Below, one piece after another: positions 25,840 to 53,930 of a stretch of DNA of 64,000 nucleotides. The position numbers and the translations under genes are program-made. The notes below the pieces were generated by a model, which worked only from the letters and a program-made list of their open reading frames with translations, was not told where the DNA came from and ran no database searches. Numbering within the stretch: the stretch's first letter is position 1; each line of letters opens with the position of its first letter. The DNA comes from an uncultured virus (IMG/VR IMGVR_UViG_3300027413_000005) (Duplodnaviria; Heunggongvirae; Uroviricota; Caudoviricetes): the IMG/VR virus record IMGVR_UViG_3300027413_000005, positions 1-64,000 of that record. The stretch is one strand, 5' to 3'.

Positions 25840-25861
25840 TAACAAATAAAATAAAAAAATT

Positions 25862-26944: not shown

Positions 26945-26956
26945 AATAAAAACAAA

Positions 26957-27268
26957 ATGGCATACTTACCTGTAAATCCTTGTTGCACAGATGTAGTTTC
27001 AAACACTCCTTGTGGATGTTCAAGCACTACAAGCAATAATCCTTGTGCAACTGGGGTACATTATTCAAAGTCTATTACATACAATGGACCTGTATTACCT
27101 TGTTCAAATGTGCAACCTTGTGATGATTTAAACATTGCTTTGTCTAAAATTGACGCAATTATTTGTACATTGGTAAACCAACAAGCAATCAATACATCTG
27201 AAATTGCTACTATAAAGCAGCAAGTAATAAGTATAAATCAAACATTAACAACTTGTTGTGACTCATAA
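26957..27268 (+). CDS. Cys-rich small fibre-associated protein
   Basis: ITYNGPVLPC...DDLNIALSKID resembles the N-terminus of 25862..26944. Confidence 0.75.
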   Translation: MAYLPVNPCCTDVVSNTPCGCSSTTSNNPCATGVHYSKSITYNGPVLPCSNVQPCDDLNIALSKIDAIICTLVNQQAINTSEIATIKQQVISINQTLTTCCDS

Positions 27269-27516
27269 TGGAAGCAATCTTAACACTAAATACAGCAGGA
27301 AATAATACTGGATCTTTTAATCTGTTTTCAGACGTAGATGGATTTAGTGTTGCTTTTCAAACAAATGTAACTAAAACCCAGTTATTGAATGGGTATACAG
27401 CTGTGATGCCTGATTACACTACTATAGTAAAAGTAGCATCAGGTTCAGTTTGTAAAAATAGTATTGAGATAACACTAGAACAAACAACCACAACAACCAC
27501 CACAATAACACCGTAG
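27268..27516 (+). CDS. Stand-alone ~70-aa repeated module plus Thr tail
   Basis: TGSFNLFSD...FQTNVTKTQLLNGY...TTIVKVAS...C; paralogous to five other N-termini. Confidence 0.8.
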   Translation: MEAILTLNTAGNNTGSFNLFSDVDGFSVAFQTNVTKTQLLNGYTAVMPDYTTIVKVASGSVCKNSIEITLEQTTTTTTTITP

Positions 27517-27520
27517 GACA

Positions 27521-30286
27521 ATGACAATACTTATAACATTAACTTTAGCAGGCATAGATACAGGTCCATTTGATCTATATTCTGATGCAGATAATTATCA
27601 AAATGCATTTGAGACTAATGTTTCCAGACAAGATCTATTGAATGGTTACACTTCTAATAATGCCCCTGTTGGAACTACTACTGTTAGGTTAGATAGTACA
27701 AATCAGACTTGCGGTTCAGTGGATATATATTCTTGTGTTAGACCAAATTGTGATTTTACAGGAGAGATAATTTGTGATGTTACAACAACTACAACCAGTA
27801 CATCTTCATCTTCAACTACAACTACTACTACTACATCAAGTGGACCTGGACCAATTACTTCACTATGTCTTTGGTCAACTCTTAACGAAGGAACCTCCGG
27901 AGAACTAGGAGTATATAATATAGACACCAATGTAGTAACTACAGTATTAGTTCCTAATGACTTTTTAGTAACCCAAGGTGTAACTAGACCTATATGTAGT
28001 ACACAAAATAAACTTTGGTTAGCTAGTGAAACAGACCTTACCCAGAACAACTTTATAATTAGAGAATATGATGTAACTTTTACATCAGGTAATGTAGGTT
28101 TATCTTTTACAAGAGACATTACTGTTAGCACACAAGGTATCCTATCATACCCTGGTTATTCTAGAGTTGGTTCTGAATGTACGGCACTAACTGCTATTAA
28201 TGATACAAGTATAATAATAGTTTTTGGTGGACCAACTGCTACTGTTATTTCACCAGATGTATGGGGTTTTACTATTGATATAAGTCAAACAGGTAATATT
28301 GCTAAAAATCTAACATCTAGTATTGGAAGAACTGTTAAACCTGTAATAAATACCTATGGTAAGGTTGTTTCAAACCCTAGACTACTATATCTTAATAACG
28401 GTGATGTTATTACTAGTATGAGGATGGATGGCGAAGTTGATGGTCCTTATAATGGGAATTATCTACAACAATACAACATTTCAAATAATGATCGTATAAC
28501 TGGAACTATGAAGTTGCAGGATTTAGGCATTCCAGAATTTACCGTTAATTACACTTCTGAGAAATATATAGATATATTCTCAATAAATAGTAAATTATAT
28601 GCTCTTCAACCAGAATTAAATAGAGTATATGAAATATCACAAACTCCTGACTACCAACAACAATCATCAAATCTTGTAGGTACAAATGTAAAAAGTTTAT
28701 CTACAACTAGTGGTTGTGCAGATATTACCCTTTATGCAGAACCAGAATGTGAATCTACTACAATACCTAATATGTACGACCAAGCAGGAGATGTGTACAT
28801 AGGTCCAGTACCGTTTACGTATGCAGGTGTGACTGTTATGGCTAGTAGTACACTTGCTGCTGGATCTAACGGAATTGTTGGTACTGGTGGAGGGGTGACA
28901 CTATATAAGTTGTGCGCTTATACTGGACTAGTTATAGCCTATGACTTTGTTGTTCAAGGGTCCGTATTTGAAATTATACTAACGTTTGCTCAACCTGTAA
29001 ATAATATTCCAATAACAGCTGCAGTACTAAATACCGTATTAACTGAAGAAGGTGAATTTAGTAATGGAGACATTTATCAAGTAGATACAAATACAGAAAC
29101 TCCAACTCTTTCAATATCGACAGGTTATGGAGTTAAGGTTATTGGTAACCAGTTTGGAGGAATAGATTATTATAATAATGACAATAATGGAGAGTTTATT
29201 GTAACTTGTGAAACTGACTATACTATATTAACTTTATCAGGACAAGCTCCTACTGGTGGACCAGTTGGATTAGGATGTACTGTACCACCTCTAAATTGTA
29301 ATAGAATATTTAGTGAACCTAGTCAAGGAAGAGACTGTGTTCCTGGAGTGTGTGCTCCTCAAAACAACTGGCCATCTTCAGGTCCTGAATATAAAAAGCT
29401 CTACTCACACAATGTTGCAACAGGAGTTTTAGAAGAAATACCATACCCAGCAGCAAGCGCTTTCACGACTCCTAACAGTGATGTTAGTGAAACTTATTTA
29501 ATAAATCAACTACTGTTAACAAATGCAGAAAGTCTTACAACAAGTTTTAGATTTGCAAGATATAGATATAATGAGTCATCAACTGGGGTACCTCAAAACC
29601 TTGATTGGGACGGCATAGTTTATGAAATAGATAAAAATGATTTACCTGGTGTATTTAGTAATTTTATATATGGACTAAGTGCAATTAATGATGATGTAAT
29701 AAGTCTTAATTACCAACGCACTACTGCAGGTGGTGGTGGTCACATGGTGGTTGAAGCACAATTTGTACCAGGATCTACAACATTAGCAATAACTGAAAAA
29801 TTTACAATACCTGAGCCATTTAATGGAGGTAGTGAGAGTGTAGTAACTCTTAACGAAGATGGAACACCAAATAAATTTATAGCTTTACGATCAAACGAAC
29901 CTGTGATAATTTCACAATTTGATTATGCTACAGGTAATTTTGAAGGTGATGTTGAATTATCTGCTCCAGGAAACCCTGAAAACTATAGAACTGGAGGAGA
30001 CATGTGTGTAATTGGTGACTTCTTATATATTTCTATAAAAGATTTACCTAATAATAACACTGACTTATGGAAGGTTAGTTTCGATACACTAGAATGGAGC
30101 ATTGCAGAGTCTGATGATAGTTATAATGGTGGAAGTTCAGGAAGTAAACCAAGCTGTAGAATAAGTAATGGATTTACATCATTTGATCCACCGCCATCTA
30201 CTACAACTACTAGTACAACAACAGGGCTGCCAGCAGGAGTAAAAACAATATGGACTACATTTTCAGCCTACACATCCCCAATATAA
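27521..30286 (+). CDS. Modular virion protein: repeated module, Thr linker, two propeller-like and one beta-sandwich-like cassettes
   Basis: 921 aa; internal paralogy (LTAINDTSII / LSAINDDVIS); fold calls are inference. Confidence 0.8.
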   Translation: MTILITLTLAGIDTGPFDLYSDADNYQNAFETNVSRQDLLNGYTSNNAPVGTTTVRLDSTNQTCGSVDIYSCVRPNCDFTGEIICDVTTTTTSTSSSSTTTTTTTSSGPGPITSLCLWSTLNEGTSGELGVYNIDTNVVTTVLVPNDFLVTQGVTRPICSTQNKLWLASETDLTQNNFIIREYDVTFTSGNVGLSFTRDITVSTQGILSYPGYSRVGSECTALTAINDTSIIIVFGGPTATVISPDVWGFTIDISQTGNIAKNLTSSIGRTVKPVINTYGKVVSNPRLLYLNNGDVITSMRMDGEVDGPYNGNYLQQYNISNNDRITGTMKLQDLGIPEFTVNYTSEKYIDIFSINSKLYALQPELNRVYEISQTPDYQQQSSNLVGTNVKSLSTTSGCADITLYAEPECESTTIPNMYDQAGDVYIGPVPFTYAGVTVMASSTLAAGSNGIVGTGGGVTLYKLCAYTGLVIAYDFVVQGSVFEIILTFAQPVNNIPITAAVLNTVLTEEGEFSNGDIYQVDTNTETPTLSISTGYGVKVIGNQFGGIDYYNNDNNGEFIVTCETDYTILTLSGQAPTGGPVGLGCTVPPLNCNRIFSEPSQGRDCVPGVCAPQNNWPSSGPEYKKLYSHNVATGVLEEIPYPAASAFTTPNSDVSETYLINQLLLTNAESLTTSFRFARYRYNESSTGVPQNLDWDGIVYEIDKNDLPGVFSNFIYGLSAINDDVISLNYQRTTAGGGGHMVVEAQFVPGSTTLAITEKFTIPEPFNGGSESVVTLNEDGTPNKFIALRSNEPVIISQFDYATGNFEGDVELSAPGNPENYRTGGDMCVIGDFLYISIKDLPNNNTDLWKVSFDTLEWSIAESDDSYNGGSSGSKPSCRISNGFTSFDPPPSTTTTSTTTGLPAGVKTIWTTFSAYTSPI

Positions 30287-30293
30287 ATAAGCT

Positions 30294-31643
30294 ATGGAAG
30301 GAAAAATAACAAAAGAAGTATCAAAAAAGATTAAGGAATTAGCTATTCAATATCCTCAAGCAGTTTCTATTGGTTTGGGTAAAAAAATAACTAATGGAGT
30401 TGATACTGGAGAATTTGCTATAGTTATATCTATACCAAAAAAGAAGAAACTTTCTGAACTTACATCTTCTGAAATAATAGTTGATAATGTAACTATAGAA
30501 AATGAAGGAGTGGTAAAAGTAGATATTATAGAAGAAACTATTATACAACATTTAGGATGTGACGCATTTTGTGGTAACACAGCAGCAGGTTCAAATAATG
30601 CAGCTAATAGAGCAACCAATCAACTGATGCAAGGAGGTATTTCCTTCTCTAGCAGAAATAATACAAAAACTGTAGGAACATTAGGAGGAATGGTAAAACA
30701 TGTAGAAACTGGTACAACCGTAGGTTTAACTAATAATCATGTATCAATAAATGATGCTTTTTACACTTCAGATAGAGACATAAATAATCAATACTTAAAT
30801 GATGCATTTCCAGTTAATCGTGTGTATCAAAATGGAGAAAATGGTCCTAACACTCCTGTTAGTAATAATATGGGAGTTAGTCTAAGGTATGTACCTATTC
30901 ATAAAAAAAGTACAGGTATATGGAATCAAGTAGATGCAGCTATCTGTTCTATAGTTGAATCTAGATTTAATATAAATACTGCTTGGAATCAAATAGGGTT
31001 AGAATCTATATTAGGTAGTACTGCTCCACCTTTTGCTAGTACAGCTGAATTAGATTTATTATTAACTATCAATCCTCGTGTATATAGTTCTGGAAGAACA
31101 ACTGGACCAAAAGGATTAATGCCTGAATGTCCTATGACAATATCAGCAGTTGATGCACTTGTTACCAGTATAGGATACCAAATGCAGAATCCTACACAAG
31201 CAAACTTAGCAGATGCTCAGAATAGTCCTTATTATGTAGTCTGTCAATTTGATAGAGCTATTAAGTTTGTAAAACCAAATAACGATACACCTGACAGTAC
31301 AGTTCCAGGATGTATAAATCCTATATTTAGTGGAGATTCTGGATCTTTTCTTTTAGCAGAATTAAATGGGACTATTAAAATAATAGGACTTTGTTATGCA
31401 GGAAGTTCAAATAGTCAAGGTCAAGTAACCACAGGAATCGCCTGTAGGATAGATGATGTAGTACAACAATTAGGAATAGCTGCATATGATCCAGATGATG
31501 TATTAGCTGGAAGATTAGCTGACCCTGACAGTATAATATATATTACAGAACCAGGAACAAGTGATGATAAAATAAGATCTTGTAATTCCAAAACATACTG
31601 GCAAGCAGGTTTTACAGATACATTAGAAAATCAATGCGTATAA
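30294..31643 (+). CDS. Nal1-like trypsin-family serine protease
   Basis: GTLG, LTNNHV (His), VDAA (Asp), GRTTG, GDSGS (Ser) and IIGLCYAG; N-terminal VSIGLGKKITNG..TGEFAIVI..KK domain. Confidence 0.88.
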   Translation: MEGKITKEVSKKIKELAIQYPQAVSIGLGKKITNGVDTGEFAIVISIPKKKKLSELTSSEIIVDNVTIENEGVVKVDIIEETIIQHLGCDAFCGNTAAGSNNAANRATNQLMQGGISFSSRNNTKTVGTLGGMVKHVETGTTVGLTNNHVSINDAFYTSDRDINNQYLNDAFPVNRVYQNGENGPNTPVSNNMGVSLRYVPIHKKSTGIWNQVDAAICSIVESRFNINTAWNQIGLESILGSTAPPFASTAELDLLLTINPRVYSSGRTTGPKGLMPECPMTISAVDALVTSIGYQMQNPTQANLADAQNSPYYVVCQFDRAIKFVKPNNDTPDSTVPGCINPIFSGDSGSFLLAELNGTIKIIGLCYAGSSNSQGQVTTGIACRIDDVVQQLGIAAYDPDDVLAGRLADPDSIIYITEPGTSDDKIRSCNSKTYWQAGFTDTLENQCV

Positions 31644-31654
31644 TAAATTAAGAT

Positions 31655-32743
31655 ATGTTAATACAAATAAATATAACAATTCCTCCAACTGGCAGTGCTG
31701 GACCATTTGATTTATTTTCAGATGCAAATGCATACAGTTCTCCATTTCAAACACAAGTTCCAGCTACTGCTTTAGAAAATGGCTATGTGGTAACACTTCC
31801 TATAGGTGCAACTATTATTAGAGTGTGTTCTGTTGGTACGTGTGAAAACTGTATTGACTTACCAACTAATTGTCCAACTACAACTACAACATCTACTAGT
31901 TCAACAACAACAACTACAAGTACAAGTAGTACAACTACAACAACTACCACTGCACCTCCGCCATATGAATTTAACTTTGAGTTATATACACAAACTCCAG
32001 GTTATATAGGAACTGTAAATTTAGTAATAAATGTAGATGGTTCTCCTGTAACAAATACAACAATAACTAGTGGGGCTGATTTTGCATCTGGAACTATCAA
32101 TGTACTAGAAGGTCAAGTTGTAACCGCAACTATTACTAACTCTAATGTAGGAACTTGGGATCTACGAAATATAGTTAGCAAAGACGGTAGCGCTTATCAA
32201 CCTGAAGATGCTTGTGATGATTGTAATCAATTAATTACACCACTTTTTTCTTCATATACAATGGAGCCATTTAATACACTTTTTCAATTTGGAGGAAATA
32301 TAATTGTTCCAACAACAACTACAACAACAAGTACAAGCACAAGTACAAGTACAAGTACAACAAGTACGACAAGTACAACTACTACTATAGCGTGTTGTTT
32401 AAACGGTCCAGTTGCAGTAATTGTTCCACTTACTACCACCACTACAACTTCCTCAGGAGGCTTTCTTGAGCCAGCTCAGATTTCATCACAAGGTGCAAAC
32501 AGTAGCGGTGCAGCATGTGGTTTAAATATAAATACTAATATATGGGCAAGAACTGAAATTACAGGAGTAATTTCGCCAGGTGATTCCTTGTGGAATAATC
32601 CAACTGGAACTAGTCCTTATGTTGGAAATGATAACTTTAGACGTTTAAAACTAACAGAAAGCATAAGTGCTCAATCCGAAAAAGGAGTATATCTACCTGA
32701 AGGAGATAATGTGATCCAATCACCTTTCTCAATATGTTCATAA
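31655..32743 (+). CDS. Modular virion protein (repeated module plus Thr-linked cassettes)
   Basis: AGPFDLFSD...FQTQVP...LENGY module; three Thr/Ser tracts. Confidence 0.8.
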   Translation: MLIQINITIPPTGSAGPFDLFSDANAYSSPFQTQVPATALENGYVVTLPIGATIIRVCSVGTCENCIDLPTNCPTTTTTSTSSTTTTTSTSSTTTTTTTAPPPYEFNFELYTQTPGYIGTVNLVINVDGSPVTNTTITSGADFASGTINVLEGQVVTATITNSNVGTWDLRNIVSKDGSAYQPEDACDDCNQLITPLFSSYTMEPFNTLFQFGGNIIVPTTTTTTSTSTSTSTSTTSTTSTTTTIACCLNGPVAVIVPLTTTTTTSSGGFLEPAQISSQGANSSGAACGLNINTNIWARTEITGVISPGDSLWNNPTGTSPYVGNDNFRRLKLTESISAQSEKGVYLPEGDNVIQSPFSICS

Positions 32744-32762
32744 TCATTTAAAAAATAATAAA

Positions 32763-33014
32763 ATGGCACAACCACCACTAAAATTTCCTGTAAAAGTAAC
32801 TCTCGTAAGCGCTTGTTCAAGCTCAGGACCTTGTGACATATATGGAAACTCAGATAATTTTACAGTACCTCTTGTTCAAAATGTATTGATATCTACACTT
32901 ACTAGTCCTATTGGATATGTTTTTGTAGGAGGCGTTCCTTCTGGAACTACTATTTTAAGAATTCAAAATACAGGAACTTGTACAAACTATGTAGATGTGC
33001 CAATAACATTTTAA
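32763..33014 (+). CDS. Stand-alone repeated module
   Basis: SGPCDIY...VQNV...GY...VPSGTTILRIQNTGTCTNYVDV. Confidence 0.75.
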   Translation: MAQPPLKFPVKVTLVSACSSSGPCDIYGNSDNFTVPLVQNVLISTLTSPIGYVFVGGVPSGTTILRIQNTGTCTNYVDVPITF

Positions 33015-33019
33015 TAATT

Positions 33020-33688
33020 ATGACAGAATCAATACAAATACAATCAAATAACATTGGTATAGATGCAGGTCCATTTAATATATTTTCCCAAGTAAATGGA
33101 TTTACAGAAGCATTTGAAACTGATATAACACCTGTGCAATTACTTATCGGATTTATTTCTTATAATGCACCTGTTGGAACTACGACTATACGAGTGGTAT
33201 CAACTAGTGAGGATTGTAATGATTATGTAGAGGAGACAGTAGACGATGTTCCACTCTGTCAAGATAAGGTAGTGGTATTTCAAGTTTGTAACTCAAACGC
33301 TTTAGTAGATGATAATTTTGATGTTTTTCTAAATGGAGTTTTAATTGGAAACTTAGACTTGCAACAACCTGCTCAAGTTGGTTCAGTTTTCATAGGCAGT
33401 ACTTCTACTTTAACTATAGGAACTTCAGATTTCACATGTCCTTTAAACTTAATGCAGGAGTTCTTTTTTGACCCTGCTCTTATATCTACTACTAATGTTA
33501 TAGATATGGTAAATACCCAAAATAATGGAAACGGTAATGCAGGAACATTTGAAATAAGAAACTATGAATTAACCGGCACTGTGTTATCAAATGCTTGTAT
33601 TGTAAAAAATGCTAATTTTGAAGGAGTTAGTGGTGATAGTTTTCAATTCGATTGGAACTATACTCAATGTTGTCCAGACCCCACATAA
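33020..33688 (+). CDS. Repeated module plus beta-rich domain
   Basis: ATG 33020 (MTESIQ) preferred to 32978; AGPFNIFS...AFETDI...LLIGF...APVGTTTIRVVS. Confidence 0.8.
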   Translation: MTESIQIQSNNIGIDAGPFNIFSQVNGFTEAFETDITPVQLLIGFISYNAPVGTTTIRVVSTSEDCNDYVEETVDDVPLCQDKVVVFQVCNSNALVDDNFDVFLNGVLIGNLDLQQPAQVGSVFIGSTSTLTIGTSDFTCPLNLMQEFFFDPALISTTNVIDMVNTQNNGNGNAGTFEIRNYELTGTVLSNACIVKNANFEGVSGDSFQFDWNYTQCCPDPT

Positions 33689-33690
33689 AA

Positions 33691-33752
33691 AAGTTCTCTT
33701 TTGTTGGTTTTAGAGAACTTCTCCTAGGGACTACATGTCCTTAGGAGTTTTT
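33691..33752 (+). terminator. Tandem hairpins ending in a Rho-independent terminator
   Basis: AAGTTCTCT/AGAGAACTT, then CTCCTAGGGAC/GTCCTTAGGAG followed by TTTTT. Confidence 0.8.
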
Positions 33753-33755
33753 ATT

Positions 33756-33833
33756 TATAACGAGATTAGTTATAAAGAATAAGTGTCTCTAGTAAATTTA
33801 TTTGTAATATCCAAAATAAATTCCATATCTTTA
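33756..33833 (+). promoter_or_regulatory. Promoter with an upstream palindromic operator
   Basis: TATAAC-N7-GTTATA (33756-33774); TTTG (33801) - 21 nt - TATCTTTA (33826-33833). Confidence 0.7.
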
Positions 33834-33858
33834 CCATATTTAACTAAAACCACATACT

Positions 33859-35100
33859 ATGTCGTACTCTGAAGATTTACTCGTCCAGTTAAAATCAATG
33901 TTAGCTTGGAAGAAGAGTAAAAAGTTTTATGCTGAGAAGTTGCAAATTACAGAAGATGAAGTGAATGATTTGCTAAAAGATATTAAAAAGGAAAATAAAG
34001 ATCCTTTAGAAGAATTTACAAAAGAGTCAAGTAAGTTTGAAGAATTAGAATTTGTAAGGAAGGTAAACAAAGAAAAGGGTACAGTAGAAAGTACTGTTAC
34101 TTTAGACTTTGAACCAAAAAGTGAAATAGATTTAGCTGCATTGCACAAAATAGATCTATCTAAATATATAATTACTAATTACTGGTCTAAACTACTCCCT
34201 AGTGGAAAGTTTACATCTTCTGTGTTTTCTAAAAGAAAACAACCTAAAGATTATACACCAGAAGACTTTAAACAGTTTTTAGAAAACTATAAGTCAAACT
34301 ACATTCCAACTCCTACACCAGAAAGAAACGATCACAAAGATCTTGTAGATATTGAGTTATCTCTTTCAGATTTTCATTTAGCAAAACGATATGTAGATGG
34401 AGATAATGATCCTGGAACTAGAGCTGTTAGATTTATTAACGTAGCTCAAAAGCTAATAGACAAAGTTAAATCAGTATATGATATAAATAGAGTGGTCTTC
34501 CCTATATCAAATGATTTTTTCCATACCGATAATTATCAAAATCAAACAACAAATGGAACACCTCAAGATGTCATATTAGATTATGCCACTGAGTATGAAT
34601 TAGGATTTTCTATTCTTGTAGACACCATTAAGATGTTAAAGTCAAACTCTTTGGATGTTCAAGTGATATTGGTTCAAGGTAATCATGATAGAACTAAATC
34701 ATTTTATTTAGCACATGCGCTAGATGTATACTTTCAAGATGAACCAAATGTATTCTTTGATAGAGAAGAAGGTTTAGTAAAAGCAACCGTAATAGGTAAT
34801 ACATTCATTGGTTTTCATCACGGTAATTGTAAAATAGAGGCACTACCTTTATTATTTGCAACACACCCAAAGTATAGTAAATGGTTTGGAGATTCTACAT
34901 ATAGAGAAGTTCACACTGGTGATAAACATCACTATATGGCTAAAGAAATCAAAGGAGTGAGAATACAGCAAATGCCTAGTTTATCTGGAACAGATAGGTG
35001 GCATAAAGATAATAATTTTGTACATAGTGTACGAGCTGCTCTAGCTTTAGTCTATGACTTTAAAGTAGGAAAGGTAGCTGAATTTGAAGAAAGAATATAA
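33859..35100 (+). CDS. Calcineurin-like metallophosphoesterase with an N-terminal HTH-like segment
   Basis: SDFH, NDFFH, GNHD, FHHG and HTGDKHH metal-binding motifs. Confidence 0.85.
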   Translation: MSYSEDLLVQLKSMLAWKKSKKFYAEKLQITEDEVNDLLKDIKKENKDPLEEFTKESSKFEELEFVRKVNKEKGTVESTVTLDFEPKSEIDLAALHKIDLSKYIITNYWSKLLPSGKFTSSVFSKRKQPKDYTPEDFKQFLENYKSNYIPTPTPERNDHKDLVDIELSLSDFHLAKRYVDGDNDPGTRAVRFINVAQKLIDKVKSVYDINRVVFPISNDFFHTDNYQNQTTNGTPQDVILDYATEYELGFSILVDTIKMLKSNSLDVQVILVQGNHDRTKSFYLAHALDVYFQDEPNVFFDREEGLVKATVIGNTFIGFHHGNCKIEALPLLFATHPKYSKWFGDSTYREVHTGDKHHYMAKEIKGVRIQQMPSLSGTDRWHKDNNFVHSVRAALALVYDFKVGKVAEFEERI

Positions 35101-35102
35101 AC

Positions 35103-35246
35103 ATGGCAACAAAATACGGAAAACCTACCCCAGGTAAAAATGTAAAAGCTCCTAAGGTTCGTCCTTATAATATGAAAAATAATTATATGAGAGAGGCTGA
35201 TCAATTAGGAGGTATACTAGGTAACAGAACACGCAAAACACCATAA
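35103..35246 (+). CDS. Small basic protein (47 aa, MATKYGKPTPGKNVKAPKVRPY...)
   Basis: Hand-translated; fills the gap between 35100 and 35248. Confidence 0.65.
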   Translation: MATKYGKPTPGKNVKAPKVRPYNMKNNYMREADQLGGILGNRTRKTP

Positions 35247-35247
35247 G

Positions 35248-35976
35248 ATGGCAACACTAAGAAAATTAGTTTCAGATGTGCGATCTATGCACAAGATATT
35301 ATCAACAGACGCACTTATCACAGATCGAGCAATTGCTTCTGAGGTTAAGAATAATGCCCAATTGTTAATTAAGAGAGAAACTAATTTAAGAAAACTATGG
35401 GCTAGTGATACATTATTTACTACCATCCCATGTTTAGAAATGAAAGAAGTACCTATTTCAGAGTGCTGCGAGTATGCAGATGAATGTAATGTTTCAAGAA
35501 CAGTATTTAAATTACCCAGAATATCTGAAGGTAATTATCAATACATAATTCAAGGAGTATATTCTGTAGATGCTATGGGAGGTAGAGGTACTAAGTTAAA
35601 AGAAATAACTATTAACAGATTTATAAATTTGTTAAAGTTACCCATAGTAAAGAATGATTATTATTTTTGGATATCTAATGGATATTTATATGTTAATAAT
35701 CCTTTACTAAAAGCTATAAGATTAGCTGCATTTTTTGAAGAAGATGTACCTAATGAAATCATGTACCCAGAATGTGGGTGTGGAACTCCTGAATATACAG
35801 ATGAGGAATATTGTAAGAATCCTTTAGATAAAGAATATGCATTACCTGGTTATTTAGAACAGCAAGCATTGTCACTAACCTCTCAAAAACTTCTAGCTAC
35901 ATATTTTCAAATTAAAACAGACATGAGTAATGAGGGAATAGATGGTCAGTCACCAAACGCCCAACCTACTCAATAA
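35248..35976 (+). CDS. Tail ring-like structural protein
   Basis: 242 aa; gene order before the IHF-like/tubular/stabilisation genes. Confidence 0.6.
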   Translation: MATLRKLVSDVRSMHKILSTDALITDRAIASEVKNNAQLLIKRETNLRKLWASDTLFTTIPCLEMKEVPISECCEYADECNVSRTVFKLPRISEGNYQYIIQGVYSVDAMGGRGTKLKEITINRFINLLKLPIVKNDYYFWISNGYLYVNNPLLKAIRLAAFFEEDVPNEIMYPECGCGTPEYTDEEYCKNPLDKEYALPGYLEQQALSLTSQKLLATYFQIKTDMSNEGIDGQSPNAQPTQ

Positions 35977-35986
35977 TAAATTATAT

Positions 35987-36466
35987 ATGTCAAGAGTAGC
36001 AGTTGATTGGAGAAGTGCTAGTAAGAAAAGTTATGAGGATTTTTGTAAAAAGAACCCTCTAATATCTCTGAATTTTGATGAGTGGAAAAATATTCTTTAT
36101 TCATTTAATGAATCATTTAAACACTATATCTTAGAAACAGGAGAAAGGGAAAAACTCCCTACTGGTTTTGGAGAGTTTTCTATAAATAAAAAGAAAAGAA
36201 AAAGAAGTAAAGATATTGATGGTAAAGAGTTTGTAAACTTACCTATTGATTGGGTAAAAACTAAAGAGAAAGGTAAACGTATCTATAACTTTAACTATCA
36301 TACAGAGGGTTATTTCTTTGGATGGATGTGGTTTAAACAAACTGCAAGATTTAGAAACTCAGACCTTTGGTACTTTAAACCTTCTAGAAGAACATCTAGA
36401 GACCTGTCTCATTACTTAAAGACAGATTCTAAATATCAACACACTTACAATGAATGGAAAAAATAA
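35987..36466 (+). CDS. crAss-like IHF/HU-related protein
   Basis: LPTGFGEFSI, IDW.KT, IYNFNYHTEGY and YFKPSR; ATG 35987 preferred. Confidence 0.7.
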   Translation: MSRVAVDWRSASKKSYEDFCKKNPLISLNFDEWKNILYSFNESFKHYILETGEREKLPTGFGEFSINKKKRKRSKDIDGKEFVNLPIDWVKTKEKGKRIYNFNYHTEGYFFGWMWFKQTARFRNSDLWYFKPSRRTSRDLSHYLKTDSKYQHTYNEWKK

Positions 36467-36469
36467 GTT

Positions 36470-37474
36470 ATGTCATACTACTATAAATACGATTTTGTAT
36501 CCCCTGAACCTCTATACGCAACAGTAAAAGAAGAACTTAAAAGTTACTTTGATACTGGAGCTGTAGATGATTTATTATTTCCTACTTACTTAGACAAATG
36601 TCTTAGAAAGATGGGTAGGACAACTTATCAAATTACCACTGAAGTTTTACTTATAGATGACTATCAATCAAGACTTCCAGATAATTTTCATGCAGTTAGA
36701 GAAGCGTGGATGTGTGCAGTTATACCAGGAAACCCTTATCCTGCAGCATCTTCATTTTATTCACAAGCTGCCAATGCTACCACCATTCAAGTTGCTCCAT
36801 TAACTATTGGAGGTTCACCCTGTAATAGACCTGATTGTCAACATCCTAGTTGTGACGGAACTTGTATGCCAGAGGTTGTGCAAGCTGTTTATAAAACAAA
36901 TGCTGAGATACCTAGATCTTATAGACGAACATACTTACTTCAACCAGGTAATATATCTGCAAGAAAAAACTGTAACTTATCATATACTAGTTCTTTTGAT
37001 CAGTATAATCAATTAGCTGTAGCAGGTGCTAACTTTACTCCTGGTGCTTCTTCTTACGATTCTTTTGACATTAGAGATAATAAGTTTATAACAAATTTTA
37101 GAAATGGTGTAATACACTTAGTCTTTTATTCAACAGATTATGATAAAATAGGAAATCAATTAATTCCTGACAATTATCGTGTTCGAGAATATATTGAATC
37201 TTTTATTAAGTTTAAAGTTTTTGAGACTTTAACTAATCAAACAGTAGATGAAACATTTAATCAACTACAAACTAAGTTAGTTTACCATAAACAAGTAATG
37301 GATGAAGCTTGGATAATGGCTGAAACAGAACTTAAAAAACAAACAGTATATCAGAAACAAAGAGCAATTGTTACTGACTTAAATCGTTTTAATCAATATG
37401 AACTTCCTGACTCAAGATCTCAAGTATCTGGTAGATACACTAACAGGTACGGAAGACGTAATGGAAATAGTTAA
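36470..37474 (+). CDS. Tail tubular/ring protein
   Basis: LPDNFH, FITNFRNG.IHL.FY and LIPDN motifs; gene order. Confidence 0.7.
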   Translation: MSYYYKYDFVSPEPLYATVKEELKSYFDTGAVDDLLFPTYLDKCLRKMGRTTYQITTEVLLIDDYQSRLPDNFHAVREAWMCAVIPGNPYPAASSFYSQAANATTIQVAPLTIGGSPCNRPDCQHPSCDGTCMPEVVQAVYKTNAEIPRSYRRTYLLQPGNISARKNCNLSYTSSFDQYNQLAVAGANFTPGASSYDSFDIRDNKFITNFRNGVIHLVFYSTDYDKIGNQLIPDNYRVREYIESFIKFKVFETLTNQTVDETFNQLQTKLVYHKQVMDEAWIMAETELKKQTVYQKQRAIVTDLNRFNQYELPDSRSQVSGRYTNRYGRRNGNS

Positions 37475-37479
37475 TACAC

Positions 37480-40400
37480 ATGGCTACTAAAAAAGAAATT
37501 GAAGACGATAAGAAGAAGAAGGCAGCTTCTAAGGCAAAAACTGATAAAGCTCAACAAGGTCAAGTAAGACTAGAGTTTAATCAGGCAATGTCTGGCTTAA
37601 ATATGGATAGCACAATTAACCAAGTAGCGACAGGTAGTCTTACTTATGCGTTAAATGCAACTGTAGAAAACTTTGACTCTAGTTCTGTTAATTATCAAAA
37701 TGAACCTGGTAACGAACCTTGTTTTAGTTTTCCTGATGGTTATGAACTTATTGGAAAACATACTATTCCTGAAAAAGACAAAGACATATTCTTTTTAACT
37801 AACCCCACTACTGGAGGTAGTGAAATTGGCTTCATGTTTAATAATGATTGTCAATATAAAACGCTAATCAATGCTCCATGTTTAAACTTTAATGTAGATC
37901 ATCCTATACCAAAAGTCGTACATAGAATAACAAACTGTACTACAGAAATATATTGGACCGATGGATTTAATGCTAGAAGATATTTGGATATAGAAAACAT
38001 TCCTTATATACTTGCACCAGGAACAACTCCTACTTGTGATCCTGTAGAAACAGATCAACTAGACTGTAATCAACTTAAGATACAACCTGACTTTCCAATA
38101 CCATTTTTAAATGTAGATGAGGTGACTAATGTAGGATCATTAGTTGCTGGAACCTACCAATTTGCTATACAGTATTCTGATGCAGTAGGTAATGATTTAA
38201 CGTCATACTACTCAATAACCAACCCATGTCCAATAGCTGATGCACTTATAACAACAGTAAATTTTAACTATCCAGTAGGAAAATCTATAGTTGTAAAAAT
38301 ATCTAACTTAGATATCTCAGGACAATTTAATTACTTTAATTTAGCAGTAATTAAAACTATAAATAATATTTCCTCTGTTGAATTAGTAGGGACATATAAC
38401 ATTACAGACGTTAGTGAAGAAATAACATATACAGGTGCAGATCAAACAGCCAAAAGATTATCTATGTCTGATATATTTGAGAAATATCCGTATTATGACA
38501 TAGCACAAGATATAACATCTGTACAAGATATTCTAGTATGGGATAATTTAACTTCTATAGATAGGATAAATTATCAGCAGATAGCTAGTAACATAACTTT
38601 GAAGTGGGAATCTTATAGGATACCTCCTGGTGAAAATTATTCTGATGAGAATAATGCTACTAATTTACGTGGATACATGCGTGATGAAGTTTATGCATTT
38701 GAGATAGTGTTCCTTCTTAAGAATGGAAAACAAACTGATTCTTTTCACATTCCAGGACCTCCTAACCTTAATATAAATCCTGATGTACCTGACACAAATG
38801 ATGACTTTATTGGTGATCCAGATTATGTTGAGAATGGTATAGGGTATAGCTCATATTGGAAGATATATAACAACGCTATTAATTTAGGAGCTTCTCCAAC
38901 TGCTACAAGTGCTGACGATTACAAAGGACCATGGGAATATGGAGAATTTGCATATTGGGAATCAACAGAAAAATACCCTTGTAATACAGATGTATGGGGA
39001 GACTTAGCTGATCAACCAATCAGACATCATAAATTTCCAGATGTATTGGTTAGTCCTATTATAGAAAATAGCACAATCACTTATGATGGTAATAACATTG
39101 TTCCTACAATGCAGGATGATGCAGTTTTTCCTATTGGAGTAAAAATTAACAATAGTCAAATCTCAGGTCTGATACTAACCTCTGATCTAACACAAGACCA
39201 AAAAGATGATATTGTAGGGTTTAAGATTGTTAGAGGAGATCGTAGTACTAACAGGTCAGTAATAGCTAAGGGTATACTCAGAAACATGGGCAAGTATTCA
39301 AGAAATGATCAAGAGTACTATTACCCTAATTATCCCTATAATCAAGTTTCTGGAGAAGACTCTTTTCTTCAAGAAAACAATAATGCATGGAATTATAAAT
39401 CTAAAGCATGGCTCGTATATATGCCAGATCAAGAAACAACAAGTTTATTTGATTGGGGTTCTCTTAATTTTGGTAGTGTAGATATAGATGTTAATGTTGA
39501 AGAAGGTGTATTTACATATACAAGTATTGTTAATGGTAGAAATACACAAGCTAAGATTCTACCTAATTGTATTATAGAAGTATGTTCTCTTACACGACCT
39601 GTAGCACTTAGGGGTCTTATGACTGTAGGTCCTGCAGATTTTGATGCATGGCGTGGATTTCATGGGCAAAAAGTGTTTGCTGCAGGATATGCAATTAAAT
39701 CAGAAAATCCTTTTAATAACTTTAATTTTGATGGTACAGTAGCTTCTAGACGATGGTTGGATTATCAAGGTTCATTAACTTCAGGAGGTGGTGATACGTG
39801 TACTGTTCTTACCAATGTGGATTATGATTATGATTATGATAATTTATATGGACAGGTTACTGAAAGTGGAGATGGTCATATATGGAAACCTCAAGTTTCA
39901 GGAGCTAATTCTGGCTTATCAATTCCAAGAATAAATTTAAATGGTATTATTCCTGGTCCTTGTTTTGAAAGTGATGACATTTCTACTGAAGAAATAGAAG
40001 ATGACGCATTAATAACATATCCTCCAGGTACATTTGATCCAGCTAACGAATGTCCAGAAGGACAAAGTGCAGCTTGTCAAGAATGTATAAAAACAGAAAA
40101 TCCAGATAACATAACTCCTTGGCCACAAGCTGCTTTTGGGCAGCCTACAAATCCCCTTCCTCAACTTAGTAACGGTGTCCCATCACAATCTTTTCCGCTT
40201 CCAACAAATCAAACAAATACATTTACTCCAGCAGTTGATGTAAATCAAATGGACGGATCTATAAATGGGACAACTTCAAGATGGAGTAGAAGATCATGTT
40301 TAGCATGTGATAGAGATATACCTATTAAACCATTAGAGGGAGCAGAATATGATTCAGTAAAAGATATTTTAGAAAAACAAATATTTAATTCTCCTGACAC

Positions 40401-43400
40401 GTCTTTTGGACAACCTTTCTTAGGTAGTGTATTAAAACTAGAGAGTGTAATGTTTGGGGCAGGTAAAGGTCATTTTGTAGAAGTTAAAGATAATGCCAAA
40501 TACAAACTTTTATCTAAAGAAGCTCAAGAAGATGCACTTAGGAGTTCAGAAAGAATAGCTAGCATAGGTTCTGGTGGATTTAATGCTGGTATAATGTTTA
40601 CAGTTTATCAGTCCTATCTTACTATATATATAAATGGAATAACAAGAAAGAACTATGGAATGTCTTTCAATTCACGAGCAAACTATGACTACTCTTACCC
40701 TATTGATAATAATGTTAAAGGTGGCATCAAACAGAGAGAAATAGAACTTACAAGATATTTAATACCAGGAGTACAATCATTTAATAATAATGATTTGCCT
40801 ATAAATAACTGGAATAGAGAATCATCTGTATATATAAAAACAAAAATTAATGATGACATATTAGCTTTTCCTCTTCCACAAGATACGCCTAGTTTAACAT
40901 CACCTGATGGTACATCTAGCATGGTTGAGTTCTCTAGATTTAACATAAGTGAAATTGGAGCATGTGATGCACCAGAGAAAGAAAAGGACATGAAGGTGGT
41001 TTCATATTATGCTTCTATGAAAAACATTTTACCTAATCAATGGGGACAAATAAATTCATTCAAAAGAATTGATACTGGATATCAAAAAGGCATAGCTTCC
41101 TCAGGAGAGGATATTATATTTGGTGGAGATGTTTATATATCTAGATTTACATTTAAAACTAAACTACCATTTTTTATAGACAATAGAGTAAATGCGCCTG
41201 ATGATTCCGATATATTCTTTGATGAAATAGGCAACATTGCATATCCTAAATATTGGCACTCTGCTAGATCTATATTAAACGCTTATAGAGTTGAGGCTAA
41301 TGATTCAAACATGCTTAACCTTATATCTACTAAAGCACATAATTTAGATTGTCCAAGTGATCCTTCATTAATTACTGCACCATCAACTACTGCTCAACCT
41401 GTATCTACTTTTGCAGGGACATACAGATCATTCTATGATGGATTTATGTATTTATTTGCATACGGTGTACCAAACTTTTATTGTGAAAGTGTATACAATA
41501 CAGACTTAAGGCAAGCTTTTAATACTAAAGAAGGTGACTTTTGGCCCCATGTAAGCAGTAGTATTCCAGATGATTGGGTACAAGAAACAAACGTGCCTAT
41601 TGCTCAAGATAATACTTATTACTATAATGTAACATTCTCTAAACAAAATAAAGAGAATGTATTTACTCAACTCCCTCCAGATTGGGAAAATGATTTATGT
41701 TTTACATACTTTCCGTTTAGAGCTATTTATTCAGATACACAAGGAGACAGTCCTGACAATAGAGTAAATAACTGGTTAGTGTATAGAGCTATTTCTTATC
41801 ACGACTTTCCACAAAACTATGGTAATCTTACATCATTAGATGGTGTACAAGATAAGGCTATCTTGGCAAGATTTGAGAACAAGGCATTGCTGTATAATAA
41901 TTTATTAACTATTGATACAAGTAATCCTCAAGCAGCTTATGTAGGTAACTCTAGACTTTTTGATGGGTCACCCCCATTAGATTTTGCTGAAACAGACTTA
42001 GGTTACGTAGGGTCACAACATAAGTTTCTACTTAAGGTCCCTTATGGTCAAATTACTGCAGACGCTAAGAGGGGACAAATCTTTTTATTAAATGGAAATA
42101 AACCTGTTGACATGACAGCTTATGGGTCAGGGGTGAATAGATTTATGACAAGTAGTTTACCTTTTGAAATTTTAGAATACTTTCCAGAAGTAAATGTAGA
42201 CAATAATTTTACAGGATTTGGATTACACGGTGTGTACGATAGTAAGTTTGACAGAGTGATTATTACAAAAATTGATTATATTCCTACAGACAGTTCGGTA
42301 TTCTACGATAAAGATGATAAAAACTTTTATATACCAATAGAGGGTTATACTGATACTTCTGGTAATCAAACTATCAAACAAGAAGTATTCTTAAACGATA
42401 GAAAGTATTTCTGTAATAAGTCATGGACTATGTCATTTGATTTTAATACAAAAAGCTGGATATCGTTTCATAGTTATTTACCAAACTTTTATATAGGAGA
42501 AAATAACTTTTACTATTCAGGGATTAACGGATGCTGTACAAACTTTACTGCTATTCTTGATAATCCAAGTAGAAGTAAAATAGATACAGAGTCTCCTAAT
42601 TTAGAGATGATAGTTGGAGAACTTGATGGCGTTGTTAAAATTACTACAACAACCACCACTACAGGTCTTCCTTTATTTACCACTACTACTACAACAGCAT
42701 ATGTTCCTGATTGTGAGTTTGATATAAATGTAGTAAGTAAGTTAGATTGTCAAATGGAAGGAGTGGGTTACATTACTGTACCAACCCCTACTACTACAAC
42801 AATATGTGCTAGACCTGATAGTTTAGTTATTTCTAATTTTACAGAAGGTTATCAAATTACAGGACAAGCTTCTCCAGTTTTAGGTACACTCTCTGCACAG
42901 AAAGCTTGCGCAGTGGGTAGTTTTGTAAGAGTAGCAAATCCTCTAGAAACAGTAGATATAAATTTCCAATATCAATATGAATTTCCAAAACCAGTTACAG
43001 TGGGTCAGATTTTATATTTTGGAGGTGGTAGTGATTGCACATTTGTACCAGATGGCTGGTACACTAGTAGTGAAGATGGTTGGAATAAAGCCTACTATGT
43101 TGAAAATTCAAGATTAGAAGAAATAATACCATGTGATTGTAATACACTTACCACAACAACCACTCTTTATGATGGGGAATTAACAGAATGCTGTGGTATT
43201 ATATACAATGATGTAAATGGTAATGTAAAACTTTCAAACATAGCATCGTCTCACTCTGTAGATTCAGATAATTTTCACACTATAGTTATCCCAGGATACA
43301 CTACTGGTAAGTTAGCTGTTGGCCCAACTGCTCTATACGGAGTTTCACCAGGTATCAGTACATCATTTAAGAAATGGACAATTACAACAAGCCCATGGAC

Positions 43401-44172
43401 TGTAGTAGCAGATTCAGATTTAGTAATAGCTGATAATGCATTTGGTACAACTGCTGGAGTGGTAGTTAAAGATGACAGTGCAATTATTGCAATAGATACA
43501 GCTCAAGGATTTATAGTAGAAATAGATACAACAAGTGGAATTCCATCACAGAAAATTCTAGTGGGAGGTGGTTATACATACACTACAAATCTATTATATA
43601 CTACTAAAGGTAAACTAATAACAATAGGAGAAGATGGTGGAGGAGTGTTCCATTACTTCCAATGGGATTATGATAACGAAACAGTAACCCCAGAAATTGA
43701 TATAACAATCACTGCACCTGAATTTGGTAGTGAGGTTGTAGCAATATATGAATGTGATTGTGACATTACGATAATTACAAAAGAAGCTAATCAATATAAT
43801 GTATTTAGCGTATCACCAATATCTCCTTATGGTGTTATATTTTCAGGAAATATAACAGATGATAATCGAAGCATTTGGAACTCTTTTGATGCTACTAACG
43901 TAACTCAAATGCAATCATGCGTTAATCCAATTGGAGGACAAGAGTTTACAACAACTACAAGTACCACAGAAAGCCCAAGTACTACTACTACTACATCAAT
44001 ATACCCTTGTTATAAATGGGAGATAACAGGCCCTGTAGGAATTATTATTACTGACTGTAATGGGCTACCTGAAGTACTAAGTGTTCCTAGTGGAGTGACA
44101 CAACAATTTTGTACAAACGTTAATACTGGAGGACCTGCTGGAGCAACCTTTATAGGAAACTGTGATATATAA
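37480..44172 (+). CDS. Tail stabilisation/muzzle protein with insertions and C-terminal Thr-linked cassettes
   Basis: GLNMD, YALNA, NEPGN, IYWTDG, GTYQFAIQY, GYMRDEVYAF, IRHHKFP, FGGDVYISRF and SWISFHSYLP. Confidence 0.8.
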   Translation: MATKKEIEDDKKKKAASKAKTDKAQQGQVRLEFNQAMSGLNMDSTINQVATGSLTYALNATVENFDSSSVNYQNEPGNEPCFSFPDGYELIGKHTIPEKDKDIFFLTNPTTGGSEIGFMFNNDCQYKTLINAPCLNFNVDHPIPKVVHRITNCTTEIYWTDGFNARRYLDIENIPYILAPGTTPTCDPVETDQLDCNQLKIQPDFPIPFLNVDEVTNVGSLVAGTYQFAIQYSDAVGNDLTSYYSITNPCPIADALITTVNFNYPVGKSIVVKISNLDISGQFNYFNLAVIKTINNISSVELVGTYNITDVSEEITYTGADQTAKRLSMSDIFEKYPYYDIAQDITSVQDILVWDNLTSIDRINYQQIASNITLKWESYRIPPGENYSDENNATNLRGYMRDEVYAFEIVFLLKNGKQTDSFHIPGPPNLNINPDVPDTNDDFIGDPDYVENGIGYSSYWKIYNNAINLGASPTATSADDYKGPWEYGEFAYWESTEKYPCNTDVWGDLADQPIRHHKFPDVLVSPIIENSTITYDGNNIVPTMQDDAVFPIGVKINNSQISGLILTSDLTQDQKDDIVGFKIVRGDRSTNRSVIAKGILRNMGKYSRNDQEYYYPNYPYNQVSGEDSFLQENNNAWNYKSKAWLVYMPDQETTSLFDWGSLNFGSVDIDVNVEEGVFTYTSIVNGRNTQAKILPNCIIEVCSLTRPVALRGLMTVGPADFDAWRGFHGQKVFAAGYAIKSENPFNNFNFDGTVASRRWLDYQGSLTSGGGDTCTVLTNVDYDYDYDNLYGQVTESGDGHIWKPQVSGANSGLSIPRINLNGIIPGPCFESDDISTEEIEDDALITYPPGTFDPANECPEGQSAACQECIKTENPDNITPWPQAAFGQPTNPLPQLSNGVPSQSFPLPTNQTNTFTPAVDVNQMDGSINGTTSRWSRRSCLACDRDIPIKPLEGAEYDSVKDILEKQIFNSPDTSFGQPFLGSVLKLESVMFGAGKGHFVEVKDNAKYKLLSKEAQEDALRSSERIASIGSGGFNAGIMFTVYQSYLTIYINGITRKNYGMSFNSRANYDYSYPIDNNVKGGIKQREIELTRYLIPGVQSFNNNDLPINNWNRESSVYIKTKINDDILAFPLPQDTPSLTSPDGTSSMVEFSRFNISEIGACDAPEKEKDMKVVSYYASMKNILPNQWGQINSFKRIDTGYQKGIASSGEDIIFGGDVYISRFTFKTKLPFFIDNRVNAPDDSDIFFDEIGNIAYPKYWHSARSILNAYRVEANDSNMLNLISTKAHNLDCPSDPSLITAPSTTAQPVSTFAGTYRSFYDGFMYLFAYGVPNFYCESVYNTDLRQAFNTKEGDFWPHVSSSIPDDWVQETNVPIAQDNTYYYNVTFSKQNKENVFTQLPPDWENDLCFTYFPFRAIYSDTQGDSPDNRVNNWLVYRAISYHDFPQNYGNLTSLDGVQDKAILARFENKALLYNNLLTIDTSNPQAAYVGNSRLFDGSPPLDFAETDLGYVGSQHKFLLKVPYGQITADAKRGQIFLLNGNKPVDMTAYGSGVNRFMTSSLPFEILEYFPEVNVDNNFTGFGLHGVYDSKFDRVIITKIDYIPTDSSVFYDKDDKNFYIPIEGYTDTSGNQTIKQEVFLNDRKYFCNKSWTMSFDFNTKSWISFHSYLPNFYIGENNFYYSGINGCCTNFTAILDNPSRSKIDTESPNLEMIVGELDGVVKITTTTTTTGLPLFTTTTTTAYVPDCEFDINVVSKLDCQMEGVGYITVPTPTTTTICARPDSLVISNFTEGYQITGQASPVLGTLSAQKACAVGSFVRVANPLETVDINFQYQYEFPKPVTVGQILYFGGGSDCTFVPDGWYTSSEDGWNKAYYVENSRLEEIIPCDCNTLTTTTTLYDGELTECCGIIYNDVNGNVKLSNIASSHSVDSDNFHTIVIPGYTTGKLAVGPTALYGVSPGISTSFKKWTITTSPWTVVADSDLVIADNAFGTTAGVVVKDDSAIIAIDTAQGFIVEIDTTSGIPSQKILVGGGYTYTTNLLYTTKGKLITIGEDGGGVFHYFQWDYDNETVTPEIDITITAPEFGSEVVAIYECDCDITIITKEANQYNVFSVSPISPYGVIFSGNITDDNRSIWNSFDATNVTQMQSCVNPIGGQEFTTTTSTTESPSTTTTTSIYPCYKWEITGPVGIIITDCNGLPEVLSVPSGVTQQFCTNVNTGGPAGATFIGNCDI

Positions 44173-44174
44173 CT

Positions 44175-45047
44175 ATGGCAACTAAAATAATAAACTTAAA
44201 AATAACAAGCTCTAGTCCTCAAGTAGGACCTTTTGAGATTACGGATGACTTATCAAATGTCCTAGGAACCGATGTGTCTTTAAGTAGCCTTATTGTGGGC
44301 ATAAGCTATAGGGTAGATGTTTCAGTTTCAGTGATTACTTTAACCTCTTCAGGTGATTGTAATTTTGTAAAAGAATTTTCAGTTAGAGATTCAGTACCTA
44401 GTATAGAATATATAACAGCTACATATACTCAAATTAAAACAGGATGTGTATGGACACACTTAAGAAACGATACTTTATATAATTATTACTATGGAGATAT
44501 AGCTCCTTACATAATCGAGTATCCTTTTTCATATAAGTATCATGATCAAATATTACAGAATATAAAAGACTATAGTAAAGTGTATGTATATCTTCCATCT
44601 ACATTAGGGTCATTTGATTCTAATAGCAAGGTGCAAGTAGATGATAAATATTTTAATAAAGCTATTCTATATAACGATCAACAATCTACAGGAGTAATAG
44701 AACTTGTTCCTAAACCAATGAATGATTTAAGTTCATATTTAAATTATCCTATACTTAATTCTAATAGTAAAACTATTACTTTTGCAAAGACAGATAGTTT
44801 CTATCAATATAACACTTTCTGGGCACTACAAAAAAATGATAAGATTCCTTTATTTAAAACATCTTGTGAATCTGGCTCAATAGATAAAGTAGTTAATCAA
44901 GATAATATGAACTATGGTGACTTATCATTTAAGAAGTCACAACTAAGAGCTAAAGATTTAAAGGTGAGACACATACTAGACAACTCTTCTATAACACATA
45001 TAGTAAGTCAATTTATTGTAGCACCAGCACAAATATCATATAAGTAA
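44175..45047 (+). CDS. Repeated module fused to the probable C-terminal part of the stabilisation protein
   Basis: VGPFEI module, then WTH...YYG...PYIIE...FNKAILYNDQQSTG...LRAK. Confidence 0.65.
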   Translation: MATKIINLKITSSSPQVGPFEITDDLSNVLGTDVSLSSLIVGISYRVDVSVSVITLTSSGDCNFVKEFSVRDSVPSIEYITATYTQIKTGCVWTHLRNDTLYNYYYGDIAPYIIEYPFSYKYHDQILQNIKDYSKVYVYLPSTLGSFDSNSKVQVDDKYFNKAILYNDQQSTGVIELVPKPMNDLSSYLNYPILNSNSKTITFAKTDSFYQYNTFWALQKNDKIPLFKTSCESGSIDKVVNQDNMNYGDLSFKKSQLRAKDLKVRHILDNSSITHIVSQFIVAPAQISYK

Positions 45048-53920: not shown

Positions 53921-53930
53921 CAAAAACAAC

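Follow-up and report, generated by a model that had tools for sequence, protein, structure and literature searches.

Six genes headed by one module

The stretch of DNA analyzed here (the window) is 64,000 nucleotides (nt) of an uncultured virus (IMG/VR record IMGVR_UViG_3300027413_000005, positions 1 to 64,000), and it contains six open reading frames (ORFs) that begin with copies of one N-terminal module. The module genes sit between tail-fiber-like genes and the ring and muzzle genes, and the last copy heads ORF 44175, directly behind the main muzzle gene. We propose that, in a clade of aquatic crAss-like phages, the module is a putative handle that binds the virion at the tail tip, a reading whose chances we judge to be about even. 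The genes concerned are as follows (aa, amino acids; MUZ-N and MUZ_C, the two parts of the muzzle).

27268..27516 (+): stand-alone module protein, 82 aa; module residues 1-72 (27268-27483) and a short Thr-rich tail
27521..30286 (+): 921-aa protein; module (27521-27736), Thr/Ser linker and a payload of ~800 aa without known family
31655..32743 (+): 362-aa protein; module (31655-31870) and two Thr-linked payload domains
32763..33014 (+): stand-alone module protein, 83 aa, divergent; N-terminal extension, without a Thr tail
33020..33688 (+): 222-aa protein from ATG 33020; module (33020-33244) and a payload of ~145 aa
37480..44172 (+): MUZ-N, 2,230 aa; Pfam crAss_MUZ (PF25731, E 3.3e-35)
44175..45047 (+): module-MUZ_C, 290 aa; divergent module residues 1-75 (44175-44399) and the muzzle C-terminal piece, residues ~88-290 (44436-45044)

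As the original prediction had it, six ORFs open with a common consensus at these starts, and all six N-termini align; it was also right that two copies stand alone, three bear payloads and one sits on a core tail fragment. The ORF caller started the fifth gene at a TTG (32978); the module starts at the in-frame ATG 33020, which falls 6 nt past the stop of ORF 32763. Relatives of the ORF 31655 protein with 356-383 aa are numerous. The payload of ORF 27521 has no named look-alike and no usable match in a protein atlas search.

Identity to the 27268 copy is 39% for 27521, 38% for 31655, 37% for 33020, 25% for 32763 and 15% for 44175. A hidden Markov model (HMM) of all six copies finds just those six among the 903 six-frame ORFs (30 aa or longer) of the 76,248-bp virus contig that contains the window (next E 0.21). 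Because this test is circular, we ran leave-one-out HMMs, which recovered 27268 at E 1.1e-18, 27521 at E 5.7e-20, 31655 at E 1.9e-16, 32763 at E 4e-11 and 33020 at E 1.7e-18. The 44175 copy was recovered at E 0.0024 only, a marginal value, yet ahead of every unrelated ORF (best unrelated E 0.065 to 0.59 across the models). This copy had been described as the more divergent one, and both its E value when left out and its low identity to the first copy bear that out. It is nevertheless secure, because three further comparisons agree: hhalign aligns the module family (70 sequences) with the 44175 family (36 sequences) over 67 columns (probability 96.7%, E 3.6e-10); a profile built on the N-terminus of the 44175 family detects the five typical copies (E 1.6e-8 to 2.8e-4) and no further ORF at E <= 1; and a profile of the five typical copies matches 44175-type N-termini in relatives down to E 1.9e-10. 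The copies thus align significantly, five by leave-one-out HMM and 44175 by profile-profile comparison, and the alignments identify all six as one homologous domain family. Neither the all-six HMM nor the 44175-family N-terminal profile finds a seventh copy in the contig.

The module had been called unfamiliar, and none of the six proteins has a match in Pfam (E <= 0.01), PHROG or NCBIfam; below threshold there is a single line, OsmE, with 17.7 bits where 65 are required. Searching 1.84 billion cluster representatives with a profile returned 1,639 at E <= 0.001 and 1,234 at E <= 1e-10, from metagenomes, with P0001 (222 aa) as the best representative. Among the 150 matches listed, all start within the first 24 residues, in proteins of 78-894 aa. 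Source annotation for these relatives reads only "hypothetical protein," and their protein atlas clusters are all-viral and unnamed. Of 40 relatives scanned with Pfam, 36 have no family, and the other 4 have mutually unrelated hits (beta-propeller families, Ice_binding, a weak Lcl_C and a weak intein hit). When 70 proteins are aligned, the module is ~40-55% identical, a Thr-rich linker often comes next, and the columns beyond are unaligned. The payloads therefore do look interchangeable, as had been supposed: in all 150 listed relatives an N-terminal module is followed by unrelated C-terminal parts. Among the free genes (those outside the muzzle), some encode payloads from families known in surface or binding proteins, and Thr-rich linkers often hold the payloads.

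All three subtypes of the module conserve a single cysteine, C62, at 90% or more, and the muzzle-borne modules have invariant G18, P19, F20, G42, G60 and C62. The AlphaFold2 (AF2) model of the stand-alone module (27268) has seven strands at a predicted local distance difference test score (pLDDT) of 78.9, and for both the module and the 44175 N-terminus the models place seven strands and one short helix in the same order. The module is thus predicted to be a self-contained FN3/Ig-like beta-sandwich of ~72 residues. Foldseek found no match in the PDB at E <= 0.001 (best E 0.69). VIA-align, an exhaustive aligner, found 13 chains with Z of at least 5, the best at 5.7 and none reaching 8; FN3 domains among them score Z 5.0-5.5, with 64-69 residues aligned at a root-mean-square deviation (rmsd) of 2.3-2.9 Å. 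The top neighbor by a hair is 8gl8_D, the C-terminal signal domain of a type IX secretion substrate on the SprA translocon (Z 5.7, rmsd 2.6 Å, 64 residues), and another type IX secretion C-terminal domain (CTD), 8glk_D, reaches Z 5.1. We rejected membership of the type IX CTDs, given that the domain is N-terminal in all 150 listed proteins, has no Pfam or NCBIfam hit and resembles them at the level of a tie. Note that this neighbor is curious, as the cultured relatives found (FpV4 and kin) infect Flavobacterium (Bacteroidota); it does not discriminate. Sequence searches of the PDB returned nothing at E <= 1 for the 44175 family and one weak hit for the module family, a chain named "Capsid protein" (E 0.11).

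A muzzle gene in two parts

The conserved core of MUZ-N ends at about residue 1685 (~nt 42534) and is followed by a free C-terminal extension of ~545 residues with Thr-linked extra domains (42544-44169). Its length ranges between 39 and 785 aa across 99 related loci, and here the extension has no similarity to the ORF 27521 payload (best E 1.5). The ATG of 44175 lies 2 nt past the MUZ-N stop. The 44175 family numbers 2,556 proteins at E <= 0.001, of which the 120 listed are 281-313 aa long.

Beyond its module, 44175 resembles the end of single-chain muzzles. BLASTP aligns it with gp29 of Flavobacterium phage FpV4 (E 2e-14), with true homology from about residue 88, and the match lies at the very end of this 1,961-aa protein, which itself matches both crAss_MUZ and crAss_MUZ_C. 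The two window genes are collinear with gp29: MUZ-N residues 1644-1685 align with FpV4 1724-1765, and 44175 ~88-290 with FpV4 ~1766-1961. In csAssE-Sib the match to 44175 likewise closes the annotated "Muzzle protein," and in Leptolyngbya phage Lbo-JY46 it closes a protein of 1,654 aa. Among single-chain muzzles the closest is P0380 (1,866 aa, PF25731), which is 64% identical over 205 residues, from 44175 residue 86 to the end, and lacks the module. No member of the 44175 family (0 of 36) matches PF25729 directly at E <= 1, so the MUZ_C assignment rests on pairwise alignments; the link is transitive, through gp29 residues 1775-1884, which match PF25729 (E 9.5e-10) and align to 44175 ~97-215.

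Among the 120 longer relatives listed, none is an unsplit muzzle with an internal module, and 119 cover 64-74% of 44175, which is the part without the module. Two apparent exceptions were rejected. P0464, a candidate intermediate with an internal module at 96% apparent cover, reflects a spurious extension across a conserved "WISFH" strand, and a tblastn match that seemed to place the module in FpV4 (query residues 17-290) is an artifact, as BLASTP aligns that stretch to MUZ-N 1644-1685. These alignments identify 44175 as a split-off C-terminal piece of the muzzle with the module grafted at its N-terminus, unsplit relatives being without it, and they place the cut in the muzzle gene of this clade at one point. 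The original prediction that 44175 contains a core tail fragment is thereby borne out for residues ~88-290. In AF2 models, residues 1-88 of 44175 have 10-residue block means of pLDDT 72-96, and the MUZ_C part fails to fold alone (pLDDT <50), as expected for a piece of a larger fold. The module is kept in 33 of 33 split loci when three HMMs are used and in 123 of 154 with the type-A HMM alone.

Free module genes gather at the same cut. In 41 of 188 split loci (not dereplicated, some from one record), a free module gene lies between MUZ-N and module-MUZ_C, and in 40 of the 41 this nested gene is separated from the MUZ_C ORF by -57 to +18 nt. One locus (L230) has two nested module genes, the inner one at 0 nt from the MUZ_C ORF. 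On gene position, a link of the free modules to the muzzle is likely.

We built a tree from 411 hits covering at least 55 profile positions; 266 were unique, and thinning at 75% identity dropped 110 to leave 156 modules. One branch (Shimodaira-Hasegawa approximate likelihood ratio test, SH-aLRT, 98) divides free from muzzle-borne modules, and three seeming exceptions are MUZ_C ORFs cut by the end of the locus. The muzzle-borne copy therefore has a single origin and is inherited with the muzzle, and the tree marks the free copies as a separate, duplicating lineage. Within the latter, divergent "type B" modules, which start like MQV..L.. and have a three-residue deletion, form their own clade (SH-aLRT 98). 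They comprise one nested gene of L230 (7257-7655) and four genes of a partial genome, G028 (L262, 9114-15610, minus strand). G028 (22 kb, 19% complete) encodes the unsplit, module-less muzzle P0380 with five module-headed genes upstream; one of its free modules is typical, and the other four belong to this divergent subtype, whose deletion is common to the 44175 module.

Possible roles of the module

A handle that binds the virion fits best, because a conserved, folded N-terminal sandwich has unrelated parts behind it and is located in or beside the muzzle genes. Under this reading, the free proteins would be virion components held on the tail via the module, probably on or beside the hexameric muzzle. 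The payload-less form would be a small tail decoration protein, and its payload-bearing paralogues would tether host-binding domains through the same site. A disulfide at C62 may secure this contact, as disulfides do in the phicrAss001 tail, and the candidate partners are the muzzle-borne copy and other conserved tail sites. Conservation across the 1,639 cluster representatives would fit binding to a conserved part of the phage rather than to variable host surfaces. A predicted complex of 44175 residues 1-90 with the stand-alone module scored 0.04 (mark 0.32), which speaks neither for nor against binding.

For a census of both kinds of copy, we searched whole related records with a profile (A5) of the six window copies and the five G028 copies, and we counted the 24 records with a completeness of 90% or more. 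Muzzle-borne copies are accompanied by free ones (1 to 5 per genome) in 18 of these, and the module is absent altogether from two (G029 and G034), whose muzzle is unsplit. Around four other unsplit loci, no module was found in flanks of up to 10 kb per side, as far as the contig reaches. Minimal genomes have a sole free copy, a payload-less, module-only ORF of 73-113 aa that lies shortly before the exonuclease-like gene and ring protein 2.

Several observations weigh against a handle. The remaining four near-complete genomes (G030, G035, G038 and G041; 99-100% complete) have a split muzzle with the module and no free module gene, and the MUZ-N extension of G035 is just 39 residues long. The muzzle-borne copy must therefore have a role independent of a free partner, and it needs no anchor of its own, because MUZ_C is integral to the muzzle. 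The most conserved free form is payload-less, so carrying payloads cannot be the original role. The likeness in fold is generic, at fold level only, with FN3 and type IX domains tied, and FN3/Ig-like domains are commonly plain spacers or weak adhesion domains. Finally, tblastn of the module against 50,697 phage records gave 0 matches.

The original prediction had payloads attach to the tail through the 44175 copy. As stated, this is not supported, given the four near-complete relatives without a free copy and the free copies of G028 beside an unsplit muzzle. Since free and muzzle-borne copies each occur without the other, docking to a muzzle-borne socket would not be obligatory, G028 being a fragment. 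A form of the idea in which modules pair mutually, and the six muzzle-borne copies (one per MUZ_C subunit) act as sockets for free proteins, is nevertheless consistent with the 18 relatives that have a muzzle-borne and at least one free copy, with the free genes directly upstream of module-MUZ_C in 41 split loci, and with the nearly invariant cysteine that both lineages share. We consider it unlikely, as G028 pairs five free genes with a muzzle that has no module (though this contig is only 19% complete and could have lost another module-bearing core protein), the four genomes named above have sockets with nothing to dock, and the long branch between the lineages (SH-aLRT 98) argues against free exchange. 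Somewhat less likely still is a bolder version in which the muzzle cut is a cassette site, where module-headed genes move in and out and their products are held on the muzzle by C62-locked pairing of modules. If this were true, the gatekeeper of DNA ejection would double as a hot-swappable platform for host recognition. A remote variant has the sandwich mimic a type IX secretion CTD and engage the secretion pore of the host.

The module could also be an exposed Ig-like adhesion domain, with weak affinity for glycans or surfaces, or a spacer, with the free proteins attaching otherwise or not belonging to the virion at all. The FN3/Ig-like fold is generic enough for this, the phicrAss001 muzzle bears inserted Ig-like domains (IG1 and IG2; PMC10172136), the virion-integral part of 44175 is C-terminal with the module added and presumably exposed, and four genomes have the muzzle-borne copy only. 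Stand-alone copies would then have nothing else to attach by, the free proteins vary too much in their C-terminal parts for these to serve as a common virion-binding element, and strong conservation across so many cluster representatives would be unusual for a domain that contacts the host; we regard this reading, too, as unlikely. More doubtful than either is a module without specific binding, a recombination handle or relic whose conserved 5' coding sequence would let payload cassettes travel between loci, including into the muzzle split. Close relatives do differ in their number of free module genes (0 to 5), cassettes are found at either of two sites (the fiber block and the muzzle split), and Thr-codon linkers recur past the module and in MUZ-N. 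Against this, the window paralogues are mutually 25-44% identical in protein sequence, too diverged for homologous recombination now; the invariant G, P, F and C and the confident fold indicate conservation at the protein level; and many genomes conserve payload-less copies with the reading frame intact.

Crassvirales rank among the most abundant known phages, and how most of them carry and exchange host-recognition parts is poorly understood; in the sole solved crassvirus virion the tail fibers are largely unresolved. This clade would offer a widespread handle domain (1,639 cluster representatives), unnamed in Pfam, PHROGs and NCBIfam, as well as an essential tail-tip protein with a single, precise break that collects extensions and extra genes. 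If the handle binds the muzzle, it would explain the diversification of host range and would serve as a natural scaffold by which a phage tail could display binding domains of choice. Otherwise, the split muzzle would still be a clear case of a core structural gene that tolerates a conserved break.

Genome context and comparison with known systems

Gene order identifies the window as part of a crAss-like phage, with a G+C content of ~33% across the contig. The landmarks besides the module and muzzle genes are as follows.

12807: P22-like portal
16848: crassvirus major capsid protein (PF23898, E 1.2e-32)
22237: ORF with a Pfam match to Fib_succ_major, in the tail-fiber-like block
25862: tail-fiber-like gene (PHROG tail fiber/tail protein)
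35248: ring protein 2 (PF25702, E 1.7e-18)
36470: ring protein 1 (PF24228, E 5.8e-7)
53886-63998: ORF open for >3,371 aa that exits the window

The last of these occupies what we take to be the place of the virion RNA polymerase gene of crassviruses. A protein identical to 44175 is encoded by a 111,329-bp IMG/VR record, and the contig is therefore probably incomplete. The ring and muzzle region had 0 blastn matches among the 50,697 phage records.

Three fiber-like ORFs (22237, 25862 and 26957, within 22237-27268) share a second, different N-terminus, which is Cys-rich and followed by a coiled-coil-like "LN..L.KID..IC" motif. These Cys-rich starts recur in relatives (L164-L167), and the genes may encode true trimeric tail fibers with an anchor of their own. 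Two enzyme-like genes also lie in this region. A 449-aa protease-like gene with a GDSGS motif (30294-31643; phrog_20754, E 6.7e-13) is interleaved with the module genes and lacks the module. A 413-aa exonuclease/phosphoesterase-like gene (33859-35100; phrog_704, E 3.1e-52) lies between the last module gene and ring protein 2, a position kept in the related loci inspected and in FpV4, where an annotated "exonuclease" precedes ring protein 2; a nuclease-like protein within a tail gene block is oddly placed.

Module genes were also seen on contigs (L169-L175) in metagenome-assembled genomes labeled Chthoniobacter, Woesearchaeota, Cytophagales, Tissierellales, Sediminibacterium and others. Of four such assemblies examined, three also have a 44175-type protein at full length. 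Phage contigs were probably swept into the bins, and the bin labels are therefore unreliable as hosts.

The closest general parallel is with modular phage receptor-binding proteins (RBPs), in which a conserved N-terminal domain attaches to the virion and the C-terminal parts are exchangeable. Examples are T7 gp17, the head-binding domain of the P22 tailspike, the multi-tailspike phages CBA120 and G7C, and the anchor-branch systems of Klebsiella phages. As in those systems, several paralogues in one tail block have a common N-terminal domain, and their C-terminal parts are unrelated and vary between close relatives. The module shows the sequence pattern of the RBP N-terminal anchor class, of which it is a putative member. 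It differs in being another domain family, with no Pfam hit; in carrying its payloads on flexible Thr-rich linkers rather than trimeric shafts; and in that the payload-less copies are the most conserved free members and one copy resides in a core tail protein.

Within the same virus order, phicrAss001 has the same tail architecture, of which R1, R2 and the muzzle (MUZ) were found here. In its virion structure (Bayfield et al. 2023, PMC10172136), residues 1-26 of gp22 insert in the THA2-THB hub on ring proteins R1/R2, and disulfides stabilize the tail barrel and fiber hubs. Appendages attached by their N-termini to a disulfide-stabilized tail are what we liken the module proteins to, with the difference that the handle here would be a folded 72-aa beta-sandwich, not a 26-residue segment. 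From gene position we considered the module as an equivalent of the THA/THB hub. This is unsupported: the module profile has no sequence match among phicrAss001 PDB chains, no hub homologue was identified, and no phicrAss001 chain is among the 50 matches listed for each fold search. The same study describes the head fibers gp21 and gp29, which have an N-terminal capsid-binding domain and a C-terminal Ig-like or phi29 gp8.5-like domain (PMC10172136). Like the free module proteins, these are small, with the N-terminal domain on the particle (putatively so here) and the C-terminal part outward; unlike them, the module proteins have no sequence relation found to either fiber, and their gene neighborhood and the muzzle-borne copy point to the tail tip rather than the capsid.

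The muzzle itself offers a further comparison, since Ig-like additions to it have precedent: in phicrAss001 such domains are inserted in its beta-propeller. Like phicrAss001 gp44 (PF25731 and PF25729), the muzzle here has a part that matches PF25731, in ORF 37480, and a part, 44175 ~88-290, that aligns to the ends of unsplit muzzles. Unlike gp44, it is encoded by two translationally adjacent genes, of which the upstream one has a variable extension and the downstream one is headed by the module, and extra module genes can occupy the gap between them.

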